From: an uncultured Gemmatimonadales bacterium
GTDB lineage: Bacteria; Gemmatimonadota; Gemmatimonadetes; Gemmatimonadales; GWC2-71-9
Assembly (NCBI GenBank): GCA_963844035.1
Contig: CAWJMT010000027.1
Location: 1-64,000 of the forward strand
DNA length: 64,000 nucleotides
Reading direction: 5' to 3'
The position numbers and the translations under genes are program-made. Below, one piece after another: positions 27,039-63,209 of this stretch (position 1 is the first letter of the stretch; every line of letters starts with the position of its first letter). A model generated the notes under the pieces. That model searched no databases. It saw nothing but the letters and a program-made list of their open reading frames with translations, and was not told the origin of the DNA.

Positions 27039-27524
27039 TCAGCCACGGCGCGCCTCCTCGATAGCCGCGATGTCGATCTTCTGCATCAGCATCATCGCAT
27101 CGAACGCGCGCTCGGCGGCAGCCCGATCGGGATCGGTGATCGCTTTCGTCAGAGCGATCGGCGTAATCTGCCAGGACAATCCCCATTTGTCCTTGCACCA
27201 GCCGCACGCACTCTCCTGGCCGCCGTTGCCGACGATTGCGTTCCAGTAGCGATCCGTTTCGGCCTGGTCAGCGGTGGCGACCTGAAACGAGAACGCTTCG
27301 TTGTGCTTGAATGCAGGTCCGCCGTTGAGCCCGAGGCACGGAACGCCCATGACGGTGAACTCGACGGTCAAAACGTCCCCTTTCTTCCCCGACGGGAAAT
27401 CTCCCGGTGCGCGATGCACCGCGCTGACGGACGAATCGGGGAAGGTCTTGGCATAAAACCGCGCCGCATCCTCGGCGTCGCGATCGTACCAGAGACAAAT
27501 CGTGTTCTTTGCTGGCTTCACCAT
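27039..27524 (-). CDS. PhnB-like VOC protein (3-demethylubiquinone-9 3-methyltransferase family)
   Basis: NTICLWYD, AARFYA, GLNGGPAFKHNEAFSFQV, CGWCKDKWGLSWQITP. Confidence 0.92.
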   Translation of the reverse strand: MVKPAKNTICLWYDRDAEDAARFYAKTFPDSSVSAVHRAPGDFPSGKKGDVLTVEFTVMGVPCLGLNGGPAFKHNEAFSFQVATADQAETDRYWNAIVGNGGQESACGWCKDKWGLSWQITPIALTKAITDPDRAAAERAFDAMMLMQKIDIAAIEEARRG

Positions 27525-27600
27525 GTCACTTCTCCATCGAGATGAGCCACCCAGGCCGGAGTCAACGATGTGCTCGGAGCGAAGGCGGCTCGCGAGGACT

Positions 27601-28938
27601 TCAGTCTGAGGCTTCTCCCCCATCAACTCGTAGAACCGCCGGAACACCTCAATCCCGTCCCACAGCTGTTTCAGCTCGAGCTTCTCGTTGGGAGCGTGCA
27701 ACCGGTCGTCGGGAAGCCCGATCCCCGTGAGAATCACCGGCGCGCCGCTCTTGCCCAGCGCCGGCACGATCGGGATCGACCCGCCGGCCCGCGCCGGCAC
27801 GGTGCCCCGCCCCACCACCTCGCGGAACGCCTCGTCGAGCAGCTTGAACGCCGGATGCGTGACCTTCACCTGCGCGGGGTCGGCACCGTGTAGAAACTTC
27901 ACCGTCGCGGTGACGTGCTTGGGCGTGTAGCGCTTGACGGCGGCGGCGAGCTGGCGCTCGACGGCCTTGAGCTTCTGGTTCGGCACCATGCGAATGCTCA
28001 CCTTGGCGCTCGCCTCGGCCGGGATCACAGTCTTCGCCCCCTCCCCCGTGAACCCCCCCTTGATGCCGTGGATCTCGAACGTCGGCAGCGCCCACAAGCG
28101 CTCGAGCACCGAATACTGCTTGAGCCCGGTCAGCGCCTTCGCCTGGACCCGCTTCTTCAGGAAGTCGGCCTCTTTGAACGGCAGCTTCTTCCACGCGGCG
28201 CGCTCGGCCTTGGACGGCGCTTTCACCGCGCCGTACAAGCCCGGGAATCTGAATCTTGCCGTCGGGAGTCTTGAGCTTGCCCAGCAGCCGGGCCAGCTCT
28301 TCGTGCGCGTTGGGCGCCGCGCCGCCGAACTCCCCGGAATGAAGATCCGACTTCGCGGTCCGCACGGTGATCTCGGCGTAACACAGGCCACGCAGCGCCG
28401 TGTACACCGCCGGCCAGCCCGGGGCCACATACGCCATGTCGGCCACCAGGACGGCATCGGCGCGCGTGCGCTCGGGCTCGCGCTTGAGCAGATCGAACAG
28501 CACGCGGCTGCCGAACTCTTCCTCTCCTTCGATCATGAACCGGAAGTTCACCGGGACCCGGTCGCAGGCGGCGATCGCCTTCAGCAGACAGAACACCTGG
28601 CCCTTGTCGTCCGCGGCGCCGCGGGCGAACAACGTGCCGCCGCGCACCGTGGGCTCGAACGGCGGAGTGACCCACTCGTTGAGCGGATCGGGCGGCTGCA
28701 CGTCGTAGTGCCCGTAGATCAACAGGGTCGGCGCCCCGGGTACCTCGGGGCCGACGCCCCACACGACGGGATGCGATTCGTCGGCGAGCAATTGTACTTC
28801 AGGGCAACCCAGCCGTCGCAACTCGGCGGCAACCCACTCGGCCGCCGCGCGGCAGTCGGCGTTGTGTGCCGGCAGTGTCGAAACAGACGGGATGCGGAGA
28901 AACTCGATCAGCTCGCGTTGCAACGTTGCGTGGTCCAT
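27601..28938 (-). CDS. M20 family dipeptidase, frameshifted (3' end approximate)
   Basis: LRIPSVS, YGHYDVQP, ARGAADDKGQ, IEGEEEFGS, DLHSG, GGSIPIV, HAPNEK. Confidence 0.92.
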
Positions 28939-29004
28939 GGCGCGACAATCTAGACCCAACCAGTGCGCCTAGCCAGCGACGAGCCCGGGGATACATTACC
29001 GCCC

Positions 29005-30132
29005 ATGCGCACCACCGCTTCGTTCGATCTCTTCCCCGACGTCCCGAACGAACGCGTCATCGCGCGCGCGCGCTGGCTGGCGCAGCAGGGCCGCGTGGGC
29101 GACGCAGAGCGCGCCTACCGCACCGTGCTCGCCGCCCAGCCCGACTTGAAAGCGTGCTGGGCCGAATGCTTCGAGCTGTTGCGCCGCACCGGCCGCGCCG
29201 CCGAGGCGCTCGGCCTCGCCGAAGCCGCCCTCGGCCACTTCGGTCCCACCGGCTTGTCGCTCACGCTGCGCGGCGCCGCGCTGATCGAGCTGGAGCGCTA
29301 CCGCGAAGCGCTCGGCGCCCTCGAGCAGGCGCTCGAGCGCGATCCCGATCTCGGCATGGCCTGGCACGAGCTCGGCTACGCGGCGCATCGCATGGGCGAC
29401 GCCAATCGCGCGCTGCTCGCCCTCGACCGCGCGTTCGCGATCGAGCCGCACACGGAAACACTGCGGCTGCGCGGCATCATTCTGCGCGCGGCGGGACGCT
29501 ACCAGGCCGCCGAAGTGTCCTTCGAGGGCGCGGCGCAAACTGCCGAGCATCCCGATCAACGGGCCGAGTGCGAGCGTGAGATCCTCACCACGCGTCGCTA
29601 CGCGTTCTTCACGCCGAAACGGCCCGACGACTTGACCCCGGCGCAGCGCTGGTTCGCAGATACCGGCACGATCGTGCTCGCCCCCGACCCCGGGCCGGTG
29701 CCGCCCAGCGACGAAGCGCTGAGCAAAGCGTTGATCGAAGTGGCGCAGGATTCCGCCTGGCGCTTTGGGCAGGTGGTCACCGTTGACGGGTCGCGCGCCC
29801 CGTGGGCCGAGTTGGCCGAGGCGCTCGGCGCACCCCTCGTGGACCAGGCGGCGTTCGACGCCGCCGCGTGCCCGCTGGTCGTGGCGCCCCGCCCCCTCGT
29901 GAACGAGCCGGCGTGGGCCTCGCTCACCGCGGCCGTCGCGAGCTACGGGACCGGCCTGGTGTTCGTGCTCGAGCACCCCGCCGACGTCGCGCTGGGGGGC
30001 GGCGCCGATATCATCGGCGTGCTCACCGACCGCGGCGTCCGGCGCCCCCGCATGCCCAACACCGCGCACGCCATCGCCGACGCCCAGATCCCCGCCGCCC
30101 GCTGCGCCGGACGCCGGCTCCGTCCCGCCTGA
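29005..30132 (+). CDS. Tetratricopeptide-repeat protein with unknown C-terminal alpha/beta domain
   Basis: Several TPR-like helices (GAALIELERYREALGALEQALERDP, AWHELG). Confidence 0.75.
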   Translation: MRTTASFDLFPDVPNERVIARARWLAQQGRVGDAERAYRTVLAAQPDLKACWAECFELLRRTGRAAEALGLAEAALGHFGPTGLSLTLRGAALIELERYREALGALEQALERDPDLGMAWHELGYAAHRMGDANRALLALDRAFAIEPHTETLRLRGIILRAAGRYQAAEVSFEGAAQTAEHPDQRAECEREILTTRRYAFFTPKRPDDLTPAQRWFADTGTIVLAPDPGPVPPSDEALSKALIEVAQDSAWRFGQVVTVDGSRAPWAELAEALGAPLVDQAAFDAAACPLVVAPRPLVNEPAWASLTAAVASYGTGLVFVLEHPADVALGGGADIIGVLTDRGVRRPRMPNTAHAIADAQIPAARCAGRRLRPA

Positions 30133-30142
30133 CCGCGACGCC

Positions 30143-31411
30143 GTGACCGCGCCCGTCCCCGTACCGCCCCGCGCCATGTCGGGGAAGTCGATCGCGGCAA
30201 GCCAGTTCGACCGCGCCGCCAACCTGATCAACCTCGAAGACTACATGCGCCGCATCCTGATGACCCCGTTCCGGGAGGTGCAGGTCGAGGTCCCGGTGCG
30301 GATGGACGACGGACGCATCGAGGTGTACACCGGCTACCGCATCCAGCACAACGGCGCGCGCGGCCCCTGTAAGGGCGGCATCCGCTTTCACCCCGAGGCC
30401 GACCACGACGAAGTGCTCGGCCTCGCGACCATCATGACGTGGAAGACGGCGCTCATGGACATCCCGTTCGGCGGCTCCAAGGGGGGCGTCACCGTCGATC
30501 CCAAGAAGCTTTCGCGGCTCGAGCTCGAGCGCCTGACGCGCCGCTTCACCCAGCGCATTTCCATCGTGCTCGGACCCTACCGCGACGTCCCCGCGCCCGA
30601 TGTGAACACCAACGCGCAGGTGATGGCCTGGATCCTGGACGAGTACTCGAGCCGCCACGGCTACACCCCCGCTGCCGTCACCGGCAAGCCGGTGTCGCTC
30701 GGCGGCTCGCTCGGCCGCGACGAAGCCACCGGCCGCGGCGTGATGTACGTGATGATGGAATACGCGCGCGACTTCGGTATCCCGCTCAAGGGCAGCCGCG
30801 TCGTGATCCAGGGCTTCGGCAACGTCGGCGGCCATCTGGCCCGGCTGCTCGTCGCCGAAGCGGGCGCCAAGGTCGTCGCCGTATCGGATGTGGACGGCGG
30901 GATCGTGAACGAGCAGGGCCTCGACATCCCGGGGCTGCTCGCGCACGCGGTCGCCGGGAAGCCCGTATCGGCGTGGAGCGGCGGCAAACGCATCAGCCAC
31001 GCCGAGCTATGGAAAGTCCCCTGCGACTGGCTGGTGCCGGCGGCGCTGGGCGGCGTGATCAATAAGGAAGACAACGCGAGCAGCATCGACTGCAAGGTCC
31101 TGGTCGAAGGGGCCAACGAGCCCACTACCCCAGCCGCGGACCGCATCCTCGAGGAGCGCGGCATCCCCGTGATCCCTGACTTCCTGGCGAACGCCGGCGG
31201 CGTCACCGTGAGTTATTACGAGTGGGCGCAAAATCTTCAGCAGTACCGCTGGACCCACGAGCAGGTGAACCGTGAGCTGCGCGCGACGATCACCAAGGCT
31301 TATGAGGGCGTGCGGGACTTGGCCAAACAGCGTGGGGTGACATTCCGTACGGCTGCGTACGCGATCGCGCTACAGCGGGTGGCGGAGGCGGAGAGGCTGA
31401 GGGGCAATTAG
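30143..31411 (+). CDS. gdhA: Glu/Leu/Phe/Val dehydrogenase (glutamate dehydrogenase-like)
   Basis: GPCKGGIRFHP, MTWKTAL, PFGGSKGG, DVPAPDVNT, GRDEATGRG, IQGFGNVG, EGANEP, PDFLANAGGVTVSYYEW. Confidence 0.93.
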   Translation: MTAPVPVPPRAMSGKSIAASQFDRAANLINLEDYMRRILMTPFREVQVEVPVRMDDGRIEVYTGYRIQHNGARGPCKGGIRFHPEADHDEVLGLATIMTWKTALMDIPFGGSKGGVTVDPKKLSRLELERLTRRFTQRISIVLGPYRDVPAPDVNTNAQVMAWILDEYSSRHGYTPAAVTGKPVSLGGSLGRDEATGRGVMYVMMEYARDFGIPLKGSRVVIQGFGNVGGHLARLLVAEAGAKVVAVSDVDGGIVNEQGLDIPGLLAHAVAGKPVSAWSGGKRISHAELWKVPCDWLVPAALGGVINKEDNASSIDCKVLVEGANEPTTPAADRILEERGIPVIPDFLANAGGVTVSYYEWAQNLQQYRWTHEQVNRELRATITKAYEGVRDLAKQRGVTFRTAAYAIALQRVAEAERLRGN

Positions 31412-31442
31412 GCGGGAGGGCGGGAAGGCGGGAAGGCGGGAA
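31411..31442 (+). repeat. Octamer tandem repeat (GGCGGGAR)x4, left arm
   Basis: GGCGGGAG GGCGGGAA GGCGGGAA GGCGGGAA starting at the gdhA stop codon. Confidence 0.95.
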
Positions 31443-31489
31443 GATGGTACGTTGCCCAACGATTTGATTCAGCACACGCGCTGGCCTCC

Positions 31490-31876
31490 ATGAGAATTGT
31501 CGGCGTGGCTCGCTACCATCGATTCGAAGCTTGGAAGAAGTCGCATCACCTCGCGCTCGAGGTGTATCGCATCACGGTATCCTTCCCACGACACGAGTTA
31601 TACGGGATCACCTCCCAAGCAAGGCGCGCCGCGCTCTCCGTTCCAACGAACATCGCGGAGGGGTCTGCCAAGCGAGGCAGACGGGAGTTCGGGCGCTATC
31701 TCGACATCGCCCTCGGCTCGTTGTCCGAGCTCTCGTACCTCCTCTTGGTGGCGCGAGACTTGGGGTTGTTGTCACAGGAACAGTGGAGCGCATTCGACGC
31801 CTTGCACGACGAAACTGGCAAGATCTTGTGGGGACTCTACGAGGCCGTGCGACGCGGGTCGACTACGATCCGCTAG
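31490..31876 (+). CDS. Four-helix-bundle protein (23S rRNA IVP-like/TIGR02436-type)
   Basis: FEAWKKSHHLALEVY, FPRHELYGITSQARRAALSVPTNIAEGS, YLDIALGSLSEL. Confidence 0.93.
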   Translation: MRIVGVARYHRFEAWKKSHHLALEVYRITVSFPRHELYGITSQARRAALSVPTNIAEGSAKRGRREFGRYLDIALGSLSELSYLLLVARDLGLLSQEQWSAFDALHDETGKILWGLYEAVRRGSTTIR

Positions 31877-31885
31877 GCCATAATA

Positions 31886-31918
31886 CTTCCCGCCTTCCCG
31901 CCCTCCCGTCTGCCCGCC
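31886..31918 (-). repeat. Inverted octamer tandem repeat x4, right arm
   Basis: CTTCCCGCC TTCCCGCC CTCCCGTC TGCCCGCC, near reverse complement of 31411-31442; abuts the aminopeptidase stop. Confidence 0.95.
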
Positions 31919-33025
31919 TCAATCCGCAGGAACTCCCGGTCTCGAATACAACGATTGGTAGGGATCCTCCCCCGGCTGCGTAAACACCCGTACCTCGATC
32001 GCGCGGATCGTCTCGGCGATGTCGGCGCCGTTTTGCAGGTAGATCTCGTCGAACAGATTGAGGTTCATGCGGTACAGCCGCTGGGCGATCACGACGGCGT
32101 TGTTGAGCGTCGAGGTGGCATACCAGCGCCAGTCGTAGGTCTCGAGTGACTGCCCGACCGGCCCCGTGAGCTGGGTGCGGGCCCACCGGAACAGCGTCGC
32201 CCGCGCCTGCGCCACGCCTACCCCGCCCGGAGTGCTCGCGTACGCGGAATCGAGCCGCCGCGCCAGCTCGGAGTAGAACACGTCGAGGATGCGCTCGTCC
32301 CGCCAGCGCGCGGCCGCGCGCGCCGCGTCGAGCGAGTCGCCGCGCGACCGGAAGAACGCCTGCGCGCCCCGATAGCCGACGAAGCTCGCAAAGCTCTCGT
32401 CGAACGCCGTGTGGCCCTTCACGTACAGCGTGTTGTGCGCCAGCTCGTGCAGCACCGTGGCGACCAGCTCCATCGTGTCCTTGCCCATGATCGTCGAGAG
32501 CAGCGGGTCGCTGAAGTAGCCGAGCGTCGAGAACGCTCCCGCGCGGCGCAGGTAGGTGTCGTACCCTTCCTCTTCAAGGTCCGCGGCCGTCTCCCGCGCG
32601 CGCGCGAAGTCGAAGAAGCCCTTGTACGGCACCACGCCCACGATCGGATAGGTCCAGGTGTAGGCGCGCAGCCGCTCGCGGCGGCTGGCGGACAGCAGCA
32701 GCAGCAGCGTGTCGCGCTTCACGTCGGCGTAGGTGGTGTAGGTGCGGCCGACCGACAGCTGCATCGAGTCCGCCGCGTACGCCCGCGCGTCGAGCACCAG
32801 CTGCAGGCGCTGGCGCAGCGGCGCCGGCGTCTTCGAGTCGGCCACGAGCCCCGCGATCGACCGGCGCCGCAGCAGGATGCGGGCTTCCTCGGTTCCGGCG
32901 CGCGCGATGTAGCGCGCATCGGCGCTCACGACCAGCGCCAGCAGCACCATCGCCGGCACCCCCACCACCACCCACAGCAGCAGCCGGCGGAACACGCGAC
33001 CCCAGTTCGGGGAACGGCGCAGCAT
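31919..33025 (-). CDS. Putative zinc aminopeptidase (Aminopep/DUF2265 family)
   Basis: WTYPIVGVVPYKGFFD, AFSTLGYFSDPL, VLHELAHNTLY, FDESFASFVG. Confidence 0.88.
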   Translation of the reverse strand: MLRRSPNWGRVFRRLLLWVVVGVPAMVLLALVVSADARYIARAGTEEARILLRRRSIAGLVADSKTPAPLRQRLQLVLDARAYAADSMQLSVGRTYTTYADVKRDTLLLLLSASRRERLRAYTWTYPIVGVVPYKGFFDFARARETAADLEEEGYDTYLRRAGAFSTLGYFSDPLLSTIMGKDTMELVATVLHELAHNTLYVKGHTAFDESFASFVGYRGAQAFFRSRGDSLDAARAAARWRDERILDVFYSELARRLDSAYASTPGGVGVAQARATLFRWARTQLTGPVGQSLETYDWRWYATSTLNNAVVIAQRLYRMNLNLFDEIYLQNGADIAETIRAIEVRVFTQPGEDPYQSLYSRPGVPAD

Positions 33026-33918
33026 CACTTCCCCCATCGCACCCCGACGCGGTGCACCGCGCCGCTCGGCATCTCGAGCGCGCGATAGGCGTAGTCGATC
33101 CGCAGATGCCCCAGTGCCACGCCCGCCCCGAACGCGAAGGGCGACTGGTTGTTCGCCGCCGCGGCACCGCTCACCCCCACGCGGGCGACGAGCCCCACGC
33201 CCCCTCGCGTGACGATCCCGCCCTCCGCGCCGGCCACCAGCACCGACGCTTCCCCCTCCGGCCACTGGCCTTCAAGCGTCGTGCGCAATCGCGCGGTGCC
33301 CTGGGGATCGACGAAATTCATCGTGAGTCCGACGCGGGTGCGGTGCGGCAGGTCTGCTCCGGTGCTCAGATCGCCTCCCAGATTCTGTACGCTCGCACCC
33401 AGCGCGAAGATATCGAACAGCGCGATTGCCACGCCGGCGTCGCCCGCCCATGACTCGACCTGGGCGGTAGAGTCTCCCTCGCGAACGTACTTCACGGATG
33501 CCCCGAGCGCGATCATACCGAAGCGGAATACTACAGAGGAGAGGCCCAGCACGTCGTCGGGTTCCGTGCTTCCCGACGCCGGGCGGAGCATCTGGCCCGC
33601 CAACCCATAGTTGAAATGACCGAGGCGCGTGGCGACCGCGGCGGACGTGTGGGCTACGCCGCCGGGGTACCACGCGTACGACCCTTCGAGCGCGACGCCG
33701 CGAATGGTGGCGAGTCCGGCGGGGTTGGCGAACATCGAGCTCGCGTCACCGACCAGGGCGACTCCGGCGCCACCGAGGCCCGCCGAGCGAGTGGAGCCGG
33801 AGAGAAAGGTGATGCTGGGCGGCGACTGGGCGGTCAGGCGGTCAGGCGGTCGGGCGGTCAGCGAAGCGAGGATCGTCCAGACCGCCAGACCGCCTGGCCG
33901 CCTGACCGCCAGACTCAT
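33025..33918 (-). CDS. PorV/FadL-like outer-membrane beta-barrel
   Basis: STRSAGLGGAGVALVGDASSMFANPAGLA N-terminal motif; GASVKY, GASVQNLG, RIDYAY, HRVGVRW. Confidence 0.75.
   Translation of the reverse strand: MSLAVRRPGGLAVWTILASLTARPPDRLTAQSPPSITFLSGSTRSAGLGGAGVALVGDASSMFANPAGLATIRGVALEGSYAWYPGGVAHTSAAVATRLGHFNYGLAGQMLRPASGSTEPDDVLGLSSVVFRFGMIALGASVKYVREGDSTAQVESWAGDAGVAIALFDIFALGASVQNLGGDLSTGADLPHRTRVGLTMNFVDPQGTARLRTTLEGQWPEGEASVLVAGAEGGIVTRGGVGLVARVGVSGAAAANNQSPFAFGAGVALGHLRIDYAYRALEMPSGAVHRVGVRWGK
33829..33910. repeat. Inverted octamer tandem repeat (GGCGGTCA-like) inside a signal-peptide coding region
   Basis: GGCGGTCA GGCGGTCA GGCGGTCG GGCGGTCA ... AGACCGCC AGACCGCC TGGCCGCC TGACCGCC. 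Confidence 0.9.
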
Positions 33919-45388: not shown

Positions 45389-46327
45389 ATGGGCAAACGC
45401 GCGGAACGACGCTGGACTGTCATGTTGGTGCCACACGGCTCGGGAGCCTCTCGAGCGGTGGAGGTGTCGCACACGGTCGTGAAAGTGCTGCTGGGGCTGG
45501 CCAGCGTTGTCACGCTCGTCGTCTCGGTGCTGGGCGTCGCGGCGATCGCGCGCGGCGTGAACATCACGCGCAACCGCACACTCGAGCGGGAGAACCGCGT
45601 GCTCGCGGGTGAGATCGCGCGCATGCAGGACCGGCTCGTCGGCCTGCGCGACACCATCAACTCGATCGGCGTGCGCGAGCAGGAGCTGCGGCTCCTCGCC
45701 GGCCTCAACGCGACCGACGCCGGCGTCCGCCAGGGCGGTATCGGCGGACCCACGGGCAGCTGGTCGGAGCGCGATTCACTGGCGGCGCTCGGACCCAACG
45801 GTCAGAAGGCGCTCGCCGCGCGCATGGACGTCGACGGTCTCATCCGCCGCGCGAATATTCTGGTGCGCTCCGTGAGCGAAGCACGCGACTCGCTCTCGAG
45901 CCATCAGGCGCGCTTCGCGGCGACGCCGTCCATCATGCCGACCAAGGGATGGCTCTCGAGCGCGTTTGCCTCGGAGCGCTCGCACCCGATCCTCCACCTG
46001 ACCCGCCCGCATGAAGGCATCGACGTCAGCGCACCCATGGGCGCCGAAATCGAAGCGCCGGCGTCGGGCGTCGTGGCCGACATCAAGTGGCAGGAGGGCT
46101 ACGGCAACCTGCTCACGATCGACCACGGGTACGGCCTCGTGACGCGCTACGCCCACTGCTCCAAGATTCTCGTCGTCCGCGGCCAGCGCGTGAAGCGCGG
46201 CCAGAAAATCGCCCTCGTCGGCTCGACCGGGTTGTCCACCGGCCCGCACGTGCACTACGAAGTGTGGGTGAACGGCAAGGCGGTCGATCCGAAAAAGTTC
46301 GTGCTGCCGGATGCGATCGTAGACTGA
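45389..46327 (+). CDS. M23 family metallopeptidase (TM + coiled coil)
   Basis: TPSIMPTKG, HEGID, YGNLLTIDHG, TRYAH, STGPHVHYEV. Confidence 0.93.
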   Translation: MGKRAERRWTVMLVPHGSGASRAVEVSHTVVKVLLGLASVVTLVVSVLGVAAIARGVNITRNRTLERENRVLAGEIARMQDRLVGLRDTINSIGVREQELRLLAGLNATDAGVRQGGIGGPTGSWSERDSLAALGPNGQKALAARMDVDGLIRRANILVRSVSEARDSLSSHQARFAATPSIMPTKGWLSSAFASERSHPILHLTRPHEGIDVSAPMGAEIEAPASGVVADIKWQEGYGNLLTIDHGYGLVTRYAHCSKILVVRGQRVKRGQKIALVGSTGLSTGPHVHYEVWVNGKAVDPKKFVLPDAIVD

Positions 46328-46428
46328 CGGGAGGGCGGGAAGGCGGGAGGGCGGGAAAAAAGAAATGGGGGCCCCGGATCACCGGAGCCCCCATTTCATT
46401 TCTAACCGTCTAACCGCCTAACCGTCTA
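46326..46428. repeat. Two different octamer arrays flanking a hairpin terminator between convergent genes
   Basis: (GGCGGGAR)x4 at 46326-46357; hairpin GAAATGGGGG..CCCCCATTTC at 46362-46397; (CTAACCGY)x3 at 46402-46428. Confidence 0.9.
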
Positions 46429-57734: not shown

Positions 57735-57797
57735 GGATTTGGGGTTCGAGAGATTGTGAAAAATATCACATGCCCGGCATACCGCAACTACGAACGG

Positions 57798-57860
57798 CTA
57801 GACGGTTAGGCGGTTAGCCGGTTAGGGGGCTCGACGGCATCTAACCGCCTAACCGCCTAG
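57798..57860. repeat. Inverted octamer tandem repeat (GCGGTTAG)
   Basis: CTAGACGGTTAGGCGGTTAGCCGGTTAG ... CTAACCGCCTAACCGCCTAG. Confidence 0.92.
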
Positions 57861-63086: not shown

Positions 63087-63092
63087 CTGAGA

Positions 63093-63197
63093 GGCGGTTA
63101 GACGGGTGGTAGGCTGACGGTTAGGCGGTTAGACGGTTAGGAACGACGGGCGAAGGCGTGGGTCTCTCTAACCGCCTAACCGTCCAATCCCTAACCG
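63093..63197. repeat. Inverted GCGGTTAG/ACGGTTAG octamer arrays in tRNA spacer
   Basis: GGCGGTTAGACGG...ACGGTTAGGCGGTTAGACGGTTAG ... CTAACCGCCTAACCGTC..CTAACCG. Confidence 0.85.
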
Positions 63198-63209
63198 ACT
63201 AATAGGCGA

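Follow-up and report, generated by a model that had tools for sequence, protein, structure and literature searches.

The window analysed here is a stretch of 64,000 nucleotides (nt) from an uncultured Gemmatimonadales bacterium (contig CAWJMT010000027.1, assembly GCA_963844035.1). Between the convergent stop codons of two host genes, gdhA and an aminopeptidase gene, it carries a cassette that consists of one gene of the four-helix-bundle family PF05635/TIGR02436, enclosed by two inward-facing tandem arrays of an 8-base repeat (the arms). An earlier examination of the same DNA (the original prediction) had proposed that this is a small mobile or RNA-excisable cassette without a transposase. The parts of the locus are as follows.

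30143..31411, plus strand: gdhA, glutamate dehydrogenase, a host gene identified by its open reading frame (ORF) and profile matches; its TAG overlaps the first repeat unit
31410..31443, plus strand: left arm, four 8-base units (core GGCGGG) and a closing AAG; its G-rich strand is that of the cassette gene
31492..31497, plus strand: GAGAAT, putative -10 element of a leaderless promoter, placed by the family-wide spacing
31505..31876, plus strand: four-helix-bundle gene, PF05635/TIGR02436, intact; the longest ORF runs from ATG 31490
31886..31919, minus strand: right arm, four units of the left arm's 8-base family on the other strand; it ends within the aminopeptidase stop
31919..33265, minus strand: PF10023 aminopeptidase, a convergent host gene

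The layout is as originally described. The predicted run of four GGCGGGAR units does begin at the gdhA TAG: the stop occupies 31409-31411, its G starts GGCGGGAG, and the four units, read directly from the sequence, extend to 31442 past the stop. The near reverse complement said to end at the aminopeptidase TGA is likewise present, at 31886-31919, and its final T is the first base of that stop (TCA, 31919-31921). A repeat search returned two arms of 34 nt each (31410-31443 and 31886-31919), 88% complementary and spaced by 442 nt, and Tandem Repeats Finder gave period 8 and 4.2 copies on both sides. An RNA fold of 31400-31930 pairs the arms (z = -5.3; equalled by 0 of 100 shuffles), the plus-strand stem having 30 Watson-Crick pairs, 2 G-U pairs and 2 mismatches. 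Profile searches identified the flanking genes as glutamate dehydrogenase and PF10023 aminopeptidase and bore out that the PF05635/TIGR02436 gene stands alone between the arms. Rfam gave no match within 30000-33500, and promoter and terminator scans, including a scan for the sigma-70 consensus, were empty at the locus.

The start of the cassette gene needs correction, since GTG 31505 is likely to be the true start rather than ATG 31490, from which residue numbers are nevertheless counted here. A hexamer of the form xAxxxT ends 5-8 nt before the start in 91 of 121 homologues from the phylum and the clade, against 1-9 per position elsewhere (homologue starts were chosen by script). Because GAGAAT lies 7 nt before GTG 31505, the gene likely has a leaderless promoter of its own. 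Many loci also have, some 40 nt before the start, a recurring word resembling AATGGT or TTGATT (31464-31469 in the window), noted by eye and too far upstream for a standard -35 box. Public read runs shared at most 0.18 of words, and four runs compared with the gene body yielded short pieces without any joint; this comparison covered the gene body only, with sparse related contigs, and is uninformative on expression or processing.

The protein scores 115.3 bits against PF05635 (cut-off 33.8) and 109.1 bits against TIGR02436 (cut-off 24). The models for Avd, the accessory protein of diversity-generating retroelements (DGRs), fall below cut-off (NF033474, 24.5 vs 80; PF22296, 22.6 vs 40). Its predicted structure has four helices (mean local confidence, pLDDT, 95) and matches Xcc0516 (2GSC; 40-42% identity) with a template modelling (TM) score of 0.84-0.91, as well as BT_0352 and, at TM 0.78, Avd. 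The family assignment and the likeness to Avd in the original prediction were thus right. The solved structures of the homologues Xcc0516 (2GSC) and BT_0352 (2RLD) contain five chains each, which suggests a homopentamer. The gene is under purifying selection, with a median dN/dS of about 0.08 over 36 pairs. In five family members (L053, L058, L104, L108 and L139) the open frame runs 93-217 codons beyond the domain. A separate clade (L067, L083, L084, L086, L095, L115, L116 and L132, from genomes G043, G045 and G053), several members of which are without R45, has inverted arms that are long (scores 27-64) and show little short-period repetition.

Arms of this kind accompany the family widely. 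With an inverted-arm score of at least 15 as the criterion for matched arms, and loci cut by contig ends dropped (3 from the order, 3 from GTDB, 14 metagenomic, 2 viral and 2 from the phylum), matched arms were found at 101 of 116 loci from the order, 17 of 22 from the phylum, 49 of 77 GTDB loci from many phyla, 57 of 66 metagenomic loci and 48 of 72 viral loci. They were present again at 70 of 77 fresh loci. Among controls, the score of 15 was reached by 3 of 300 flanks mismatched across loci and by none of 150 random places. The genome of the window itself holds seven family genes at five sites, three of the seven being one locus on redundant contigs; six score at least 15 and one is degenerate. 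The proposed test of the flanks of other family members therefore came out in favour of the prediction, nearly all of them carrying matched arms. Unit length is specific to the locus (mostly 7, then 8, 10, 9, 15 and 16 bases, and 7 to 20 across the family), and the left and right arms of one locus always match in unit. Without use of protein data, the heptamers align as N-R-G-N4, and arms tend to start and stop at RG. A single heptamer G is nearly invariant (1.7% mismatch, against 5-21% at most other positions), in arrays that were themselves chosen by core patterns. The viral contigs (L313-L386), where 48 of the 72 loci with both flanks bear matched arms, suggest that phages or proviral fragments may ferry the cassette.

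The site in the window is polymorphic among relatives. We examined 30 aminopeptidase loci, and gdhA was resolved on the left in 11, the locus in the window included. Five of the other ten junctions are short or empty (overlapping stops in two; 6, 13 and 21 nt in three), two (246 and 75 nt) hold hairpins built from other units and no gene, two hold a different family member, once in the orientation of the window and once flipped, and one holds an unrelated gene. One more genome, without gdhA, has a flipped family member at the same aminopeptidase end. The proteins of the three relatives with a family member at this site are 79-82% identical to one another and 58-60% identical to that of the window, and the arms differ. 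The comparison of empty and filled junctions that had been recommended thus yields empty, filled and flipped states. The direction of gain or loss is not readable from these junctions, one of which, of 13 nt, resembles a repeat remnant. In a set of 157 loci with long flanks, a flank is shared by 59 pairs below 60% protein identity, 28 of them flipped; such pairs are not independent, and the shared flanks are unannotated.

Arrays also occur without the gene, throughout the genome. Arrays of period 7 or 8 number 256, against 8 and 4 in two shuffles, and periods 5, 10, 11, 13 and 17 give 6-10, so that abundance is far above chance; array and gene counts include some duplicates, because the assembly holds redundant contigs of 78-99% identity (C1/C17, C3/C35/C28, C9/C30/C1, C13/C32, C5/C21 and others). 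Four of the commonest array families match the arms of resident genes, and a further one, GGGAMG, has no match among resident genes and is matched in relatives. Among 308 runs, those with 2, 3, 4, 5 and 6 cores number 61, 79, 156, 11 and 1, four being the commonest. Where two arrays lie less than 150 nt apart, 50 pairs face inward and none outward; the pairs hug stop codons, with the G-rich strand after the stops. Solo arms inside genes have the G-rich strand on the sense strand in 36 cases vs 9, by rough gene calls, and solo intergenic arms show no replication-strand bias (38 leading vs 30 lagging, by a third-position skew proxy). Within the host family of genomes, the 8-mer pattern was found in 24 of 27 genomes with the gene and in 3 of 9 without it, these kin not being independent of one another. 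G003, a relative of the same genus rated 100% complete, has neither the gene nor any match to three array patterns, a state that may be ancestral or decayed. Reversed-pattern controls were matched by the same arrays and hence discarded. In one other genome (G041), the single family gene has an arm of the GGAAGCG type, and this array pattern is matched 149 times. Neither the gene-less arrays nor the link between unit and protein subfamily, to which we return below, figured in the original prediction.

The two arms of a pair behave independently. Over 27 four-by-four arm pairs, this locus included, partners agree at 670 of 762 positions, and random arms of the same family at 670.2 +/- 6.6; in-register matching between partners is no better than with shuffled unit order (515 vs 521). 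Partner arms thus match like random arms of their family, without compensatory pairing, and selection on the stem is not supported. The 37 loops are mutually unrelated except for one duplicated contig pair and haplotypes are near independence, and spread from a master copy or as a miniature inverted-repeat transposable element was rejected on these grounds. Units switch at orthologous sites of contigs 85-90% identical, and in relatives; the switch sites lie in rsmA, after tuf and in a signal-peptide region. In near-identical contigs both arms were seen to switch together (C12:1056-1160/C23; C31:9748/C10:59393; C35:283254/C3:12151). Comparison of redundant contigs and of relatives indicates that arrays arise at orthologous sites with little or no change of length. 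Set against solved homologues, the TilS array aligns with 1WY5 without gaps and the MazG array falls two residues short of 3CRA, whereas ThiL has 6-7 extra residues, so both overwriting and insertion occur; the LplA and RsmA alignments left their arrays uncovered. Adenine-specific variation was not seen (mismatch A 12-16%, C 10-19%, G 11-13%, T 8-9%). In two of four families, neighbouring units resemble each other slightly more than expected by chance.

The repeat unit covaries with the protein. In 110 heptamer loci below 70% identity, G at base 4 accompanies H or Y at residue 59 in 27 of 32 cases and other residues in 17 of 78, the residue columns having been chosen post hoc from about 100. 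On the best tree, with all branches counted, about 11 pairs agree with this rule and 1 opposes it (median p 0.006), and on fresh loci it held one way (4 of 4 vs 6 of 17, p 0.035). Formal independent-pair tests had 3-6 supported pairs, too few to reach significance. An aromatic residue 114 goes with periods of at least 8 (69 of 77 vs 17 of 131; fresh loci, 18 of 20 vs 7 of 30) and marks a clade, as about 1 of 11 tree pairs differed. In the clade of the protein in the window, K or R at residue 111 accompanies period 8 in 28 of 33 cases vs 1 of 29 and G115 does so in 21 of 21; on fresh loci the G115 association (6 of 6 vs 8 of 11) was not significant. The protein in the window has K111, G115 and an 8-mer unit. 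A copy of the repeat inside the gene was rejected as the cause of the residue-base link, given that a gene's own unit beat that of another locus in 54% of 179 genes.

From the layout, the polymorphic junction, the matched arms across phyla, the genome-wide arrays, the independence of the arms and the purifying selection on the gene, we read the locus as a repeat-flanked selfish cassette, whose protein, a predicted pentameric ring, would bind its own repeats in single-stranded form and spread by way of host recombination. We give this reading as a whole a probability of roughly 0.55. That the protein binds its own repeat is highly probable; the route of spread, by strand capture and host recombination, is offered tentatively. 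The protein would assemble as the pentamer suggested by its two solved homologues and would hold a single strand with one repeat unit in each subunit crevice, about four units per ring. Single-strand, unit-per-crevice binding is proposed in view of the occurrence of 7-, 8-, 9- and 10-base units alike. Each strand of the cassette has a G-rich run 5' of the gene, so that either could be captured. Capture would shield single strands that bear arrays and favour their integration by host enzymes, and integration would move the cassette and write four-unit runs at tolerant sites, sometimes over coding DNA.

Several observations weigh against the selfish-cassette reading. Binding and movement are both reached indirectly, and no catalytic or partner protein was identified. 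No target-site duplication is visible at the junction, the relatives are too distant to fix the ends of an insertion, and deletion may account for the empty sites. At 70% identity or more, 37 of 52 pairs share their site and 15 share no flank, so that movement is slow relative to protein divergence. The tree of so short a protein is weak and leaves 3 independent residue-59 pairs on supported branches, for which reason the residue-base link is not formally separable from ancestry. Residue 111 was rejected as a rule for the period after it failed on fresh loci (6 of 7 vs 8 of 10), and the protein in the window, with S59 and F67 and a G at base 4, misfits the heptamer rule, belonging as it does to the clade with units of 8 and more. 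The choice of arrays by core patterns inflates the conservation of the core. The limit of four units is not universal, the mode in other genomes being 4-5 with a long tail and arms of up to 31 units, and in one genome (G014) 11 array matches (7-mer) were found and no gene.

An alternative is that the protein serves the host as an RNA regulator, its ring binding runs in mRNA near gene ends and its own arms acting as autoregulatory sites; regulators of the TRAP or Csr type offer a comparison. Such a role would suit the sense bias of the solo in-gene arrays, which holds irrespective of replication strand, the closeness of pairs to stop codons and the purifying selection on the gene, and Avd is reported to bind RNA (10.1101/2023.10.23.563531). 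Arrays, however, change unit or disappear at the same site between near relatives, G003 does without both the gene and the three array patterns, and the sense bias could reflect codon tolerance. We consider a host-serving regulator unlikely.

Less likely is that the cassette is an intervening sequence removed from RNA, with arms that pair in transcripts for excision by RNase III as in 23S rRNA. The 34-bp stem does fold, and the 23S rRNA insert of Coxiella burnetii combines an S23p protein of this family, encoded by a decaying ORF, with tandem GACAGAT heptamers and a 28-bp stem, and is cleaved in vitro by RNase III (PMC4990558, which also cites an ORF-bearing 23S rRNA insert in Leptospira). But arm partners match no better than random same-family arms, many arms are solo, unlike arms can be paired, and the gene likely has its own promoter; moreover, with the cassette lying between convergent stop codons, its excision would restore no transcript. 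Cutting by RNase III may be incidental, allowing the cassette to persist within rRNA. Of the original prediction, then, the cassette without a transposase is supported, being present, absent or flipped among relatives, and the looping out or excision of the gene by an RNA stem is not supported. The cassette shares with the rRNA elements the protein family, terminal inverted repeats that form a stem and the tandem heptamers found there in the 5' arm. It differs in its 8-base units, in lying between protein genes rather than inside rRNA, in an intact and selected gene that likely has its own promoter and occurs in either orientation, and in the gene-less arrays, which number in the hundreds. The rRNA element appears to be one of the sites at which the cassette has landed.

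Lower still we place a non-autonomous element moved in trans, by an Avd-like reverse transcriptase or by a transposase such as Y1. The fold shared with Avd and five Y1_Tnp matches in the genome speak for it. On the other hand, RVT_1 has no match in this genome, which is 84% complete, and occurs in 7 of 61 genomes vs 50 of 61 for the gene; variation is not adenine-specific, and neither loops nor arms are master copies. A retroelement was accordingly rejected, with no reverse transcriptase near the locus. The Y1 genes carry palindromic flanks of their own that differ from the arms, and we rejected them as movers; four of these RAYT-like genes, at C23:11530, C5:185867, C23:33741 and C5:200388, with their own palindromic repeats, form a separate system. 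Two further candidates were set aside: a GxxExxY/PD-(D/E)XK partner (no PF13366 match in the genome), and ComEC, whose presence here is uninformative, since 10 of 14 control genomes have it too. Least probable are simple repeats born by slippage and kept as G-quadruplexes or hairpins, with the gene as passenger: the four GGG tracts of the arms in the window, the slight likeness of neighbouring units and the attribution of the four-unit preference of Xanthomonas GGGAATC runs to quadruplexes, shown in vitro (PMC4692102), fit this account, but 33 of 208 cassette units lack GG on either strand (for which the quadruplex was rejected as a general cause), 102 have GG only, GG-only families also peak at four units, and slippage can give neither matched locus-specific arms around one gene family across phyla nor overwriting without change of length.

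The repeats nearest to these are the runs of GGGAATC in Xanthomonas and GGGGAYT in Nostoc, the short tandemly repeated repetitive (STRR) sequences of cyanobacteria and TAACTGA. In X. campestris, 186 GGGAATC runs have been described, with a four-unit preference, inward pairs and a proposed quadruplex, their function being left open (PMC4692102). One four-unit run lies directly upstream of XCC0516, between bccP and that gene, with no inverted partner listed (PMC4692102 supplement 2, row 15). The binder of the TAACTGA repeats of Beggiatoaceae is given as unknown (PMC4679880), and term searches of these two papers turned up no four-helix-bundle protein. These repeats share with the arrays described here the four-unit preference, the inward pairs and the G-rich strand after stops; they differ in having a seven-base unit, where the window has eight, and the arrays here are tied to a gene. 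The family has been noted in cas loci, in rRNA inserts of the candidate phyla radiation and as strain-unique genes, and STRR hairpins are recorded as of unknown function (PMC3936711, 10.1101/2024.02.27.582315, PMC8700078, PMC2670836).

Among proteins, Xcc0516 (2GSC), BT_0352 (2RLD) and DGR Avd (4DWL, 8UB7) have the same fold, and the Avd pentamer is described as holding flipped-out RNA bases between protomers (10.1101/2023.10.23.563531). The cassette differs from a DGR in having no linked reverse transcriptase, template or variable repeat and in its low Avd score (24.5 vs 80). Ssn-NTS (PMC11893778) and REPIN-RAYT systems (PMC3116915) likewise pair a small gene with its own repeats on both sides and with many further copies elsewhere in the genomes that have the gene; there, however, GIY-YIG or HUH nucleases and palindromic repeats are found, and here no known catalytic fold and tandem non-palindromic units. 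Dispersed cognate repeats do occur in genomes with the gene, as with REPIN-RAYT, but the enclosed gene is PF05635, not Y1 or HUH, and the doublets are not replicated as a unit. Profile searches gave no GIY-YIG Pfam match and no transposase encoded in the cassette. DNA uptake sequences of Neisseria (PMC2397512) are similar in that short motifs appear where the sequence is permissive, frequently as inverted pairs near each other, and likely through recombination and drive; they are single 10-12-base motifs with a surface pilin as reader, unlike four-unit runs whose candidate reader lies between its own sites. The element is thus a PF05635 member that fits neither the rRNA intervening sequence, nor the DGR, nor REPIN-RAYT, nor the insertion sequence, and resembles a gene flanked by its own sites.

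The feature is real and part of a wide, seemingly undescribed system, in which a gene lies between its own inward runs and hundreds of gene-less runs accompany it; in a literature search that excluded subscription journals and preprint supplements, no paper connected the protein with arrays, whether at its flanks or dispersed, except in rRNA. A bolder proposal, possible but speculative, is that PF05635 proteins are the readers of otherwise unexplained 7-10-base runs (Xanthomonas GGGAATC, cyanobacterial STRR, rRNA heptamers). A non-catalytic ring of five subunits with a small residue-to-base code would drive both the gene and its sites, overwriting about 30 bases even in essential genes, and would represent a selfish class without a nuclease, recombinase or polymerase of its own. 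The selfish-cassette reading joins two old questions, the role of the four-helix-bundle proteins of intervening sequences and the origin of four-unit runs of heptamers and octamers; each gene has its candidate ligand at either flank. If true, it would mean that a selfish gene reshapes intergenic and coding DNA without a transposase, that a small ring can have tunable single-strand specificity, and that DGR Avd and the ORF-bearing rRNA inserts likely originated from such cassettes.

Beyond the cassette, the window contains at least five further array sites, including the following.

33829..33914: gene-less inward pair of GGCGGTCA units, in what is likely the signal-peptide region of a gene on the minus strand
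46326..46428: a terminator-like hairpin between two unlike arms, one of the GGCGGGA type and one of the TTAGGCGG type, each of which begins at a convergent stop codon
55220..55306: two inward-facing arrays of 7-base units (GGTGTCA family), with no gene between them
57795..57859: two inward-facing arrays of 8-base units from the TTAGGCGG family, with no gene between them
63092..63202: two inward-facing arrays, again of 8-base units from the TTAGGCGG family and with no gene between them

At 33829-33914 the length is kept within 3-9 nt in two relatives, and the arms may shape signal peptides, since G002 keeps a degenerate version of equal length. The 46326-46428 region is 76-93 nt shorter in four relatives, which lack the whole insert. 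At 27039-28959, on the minus strand, a peptidase-like gene is split across two frames; frameshifts also disrupt two PF05635 genes and other genes of the genome, and are likely assembly errors.

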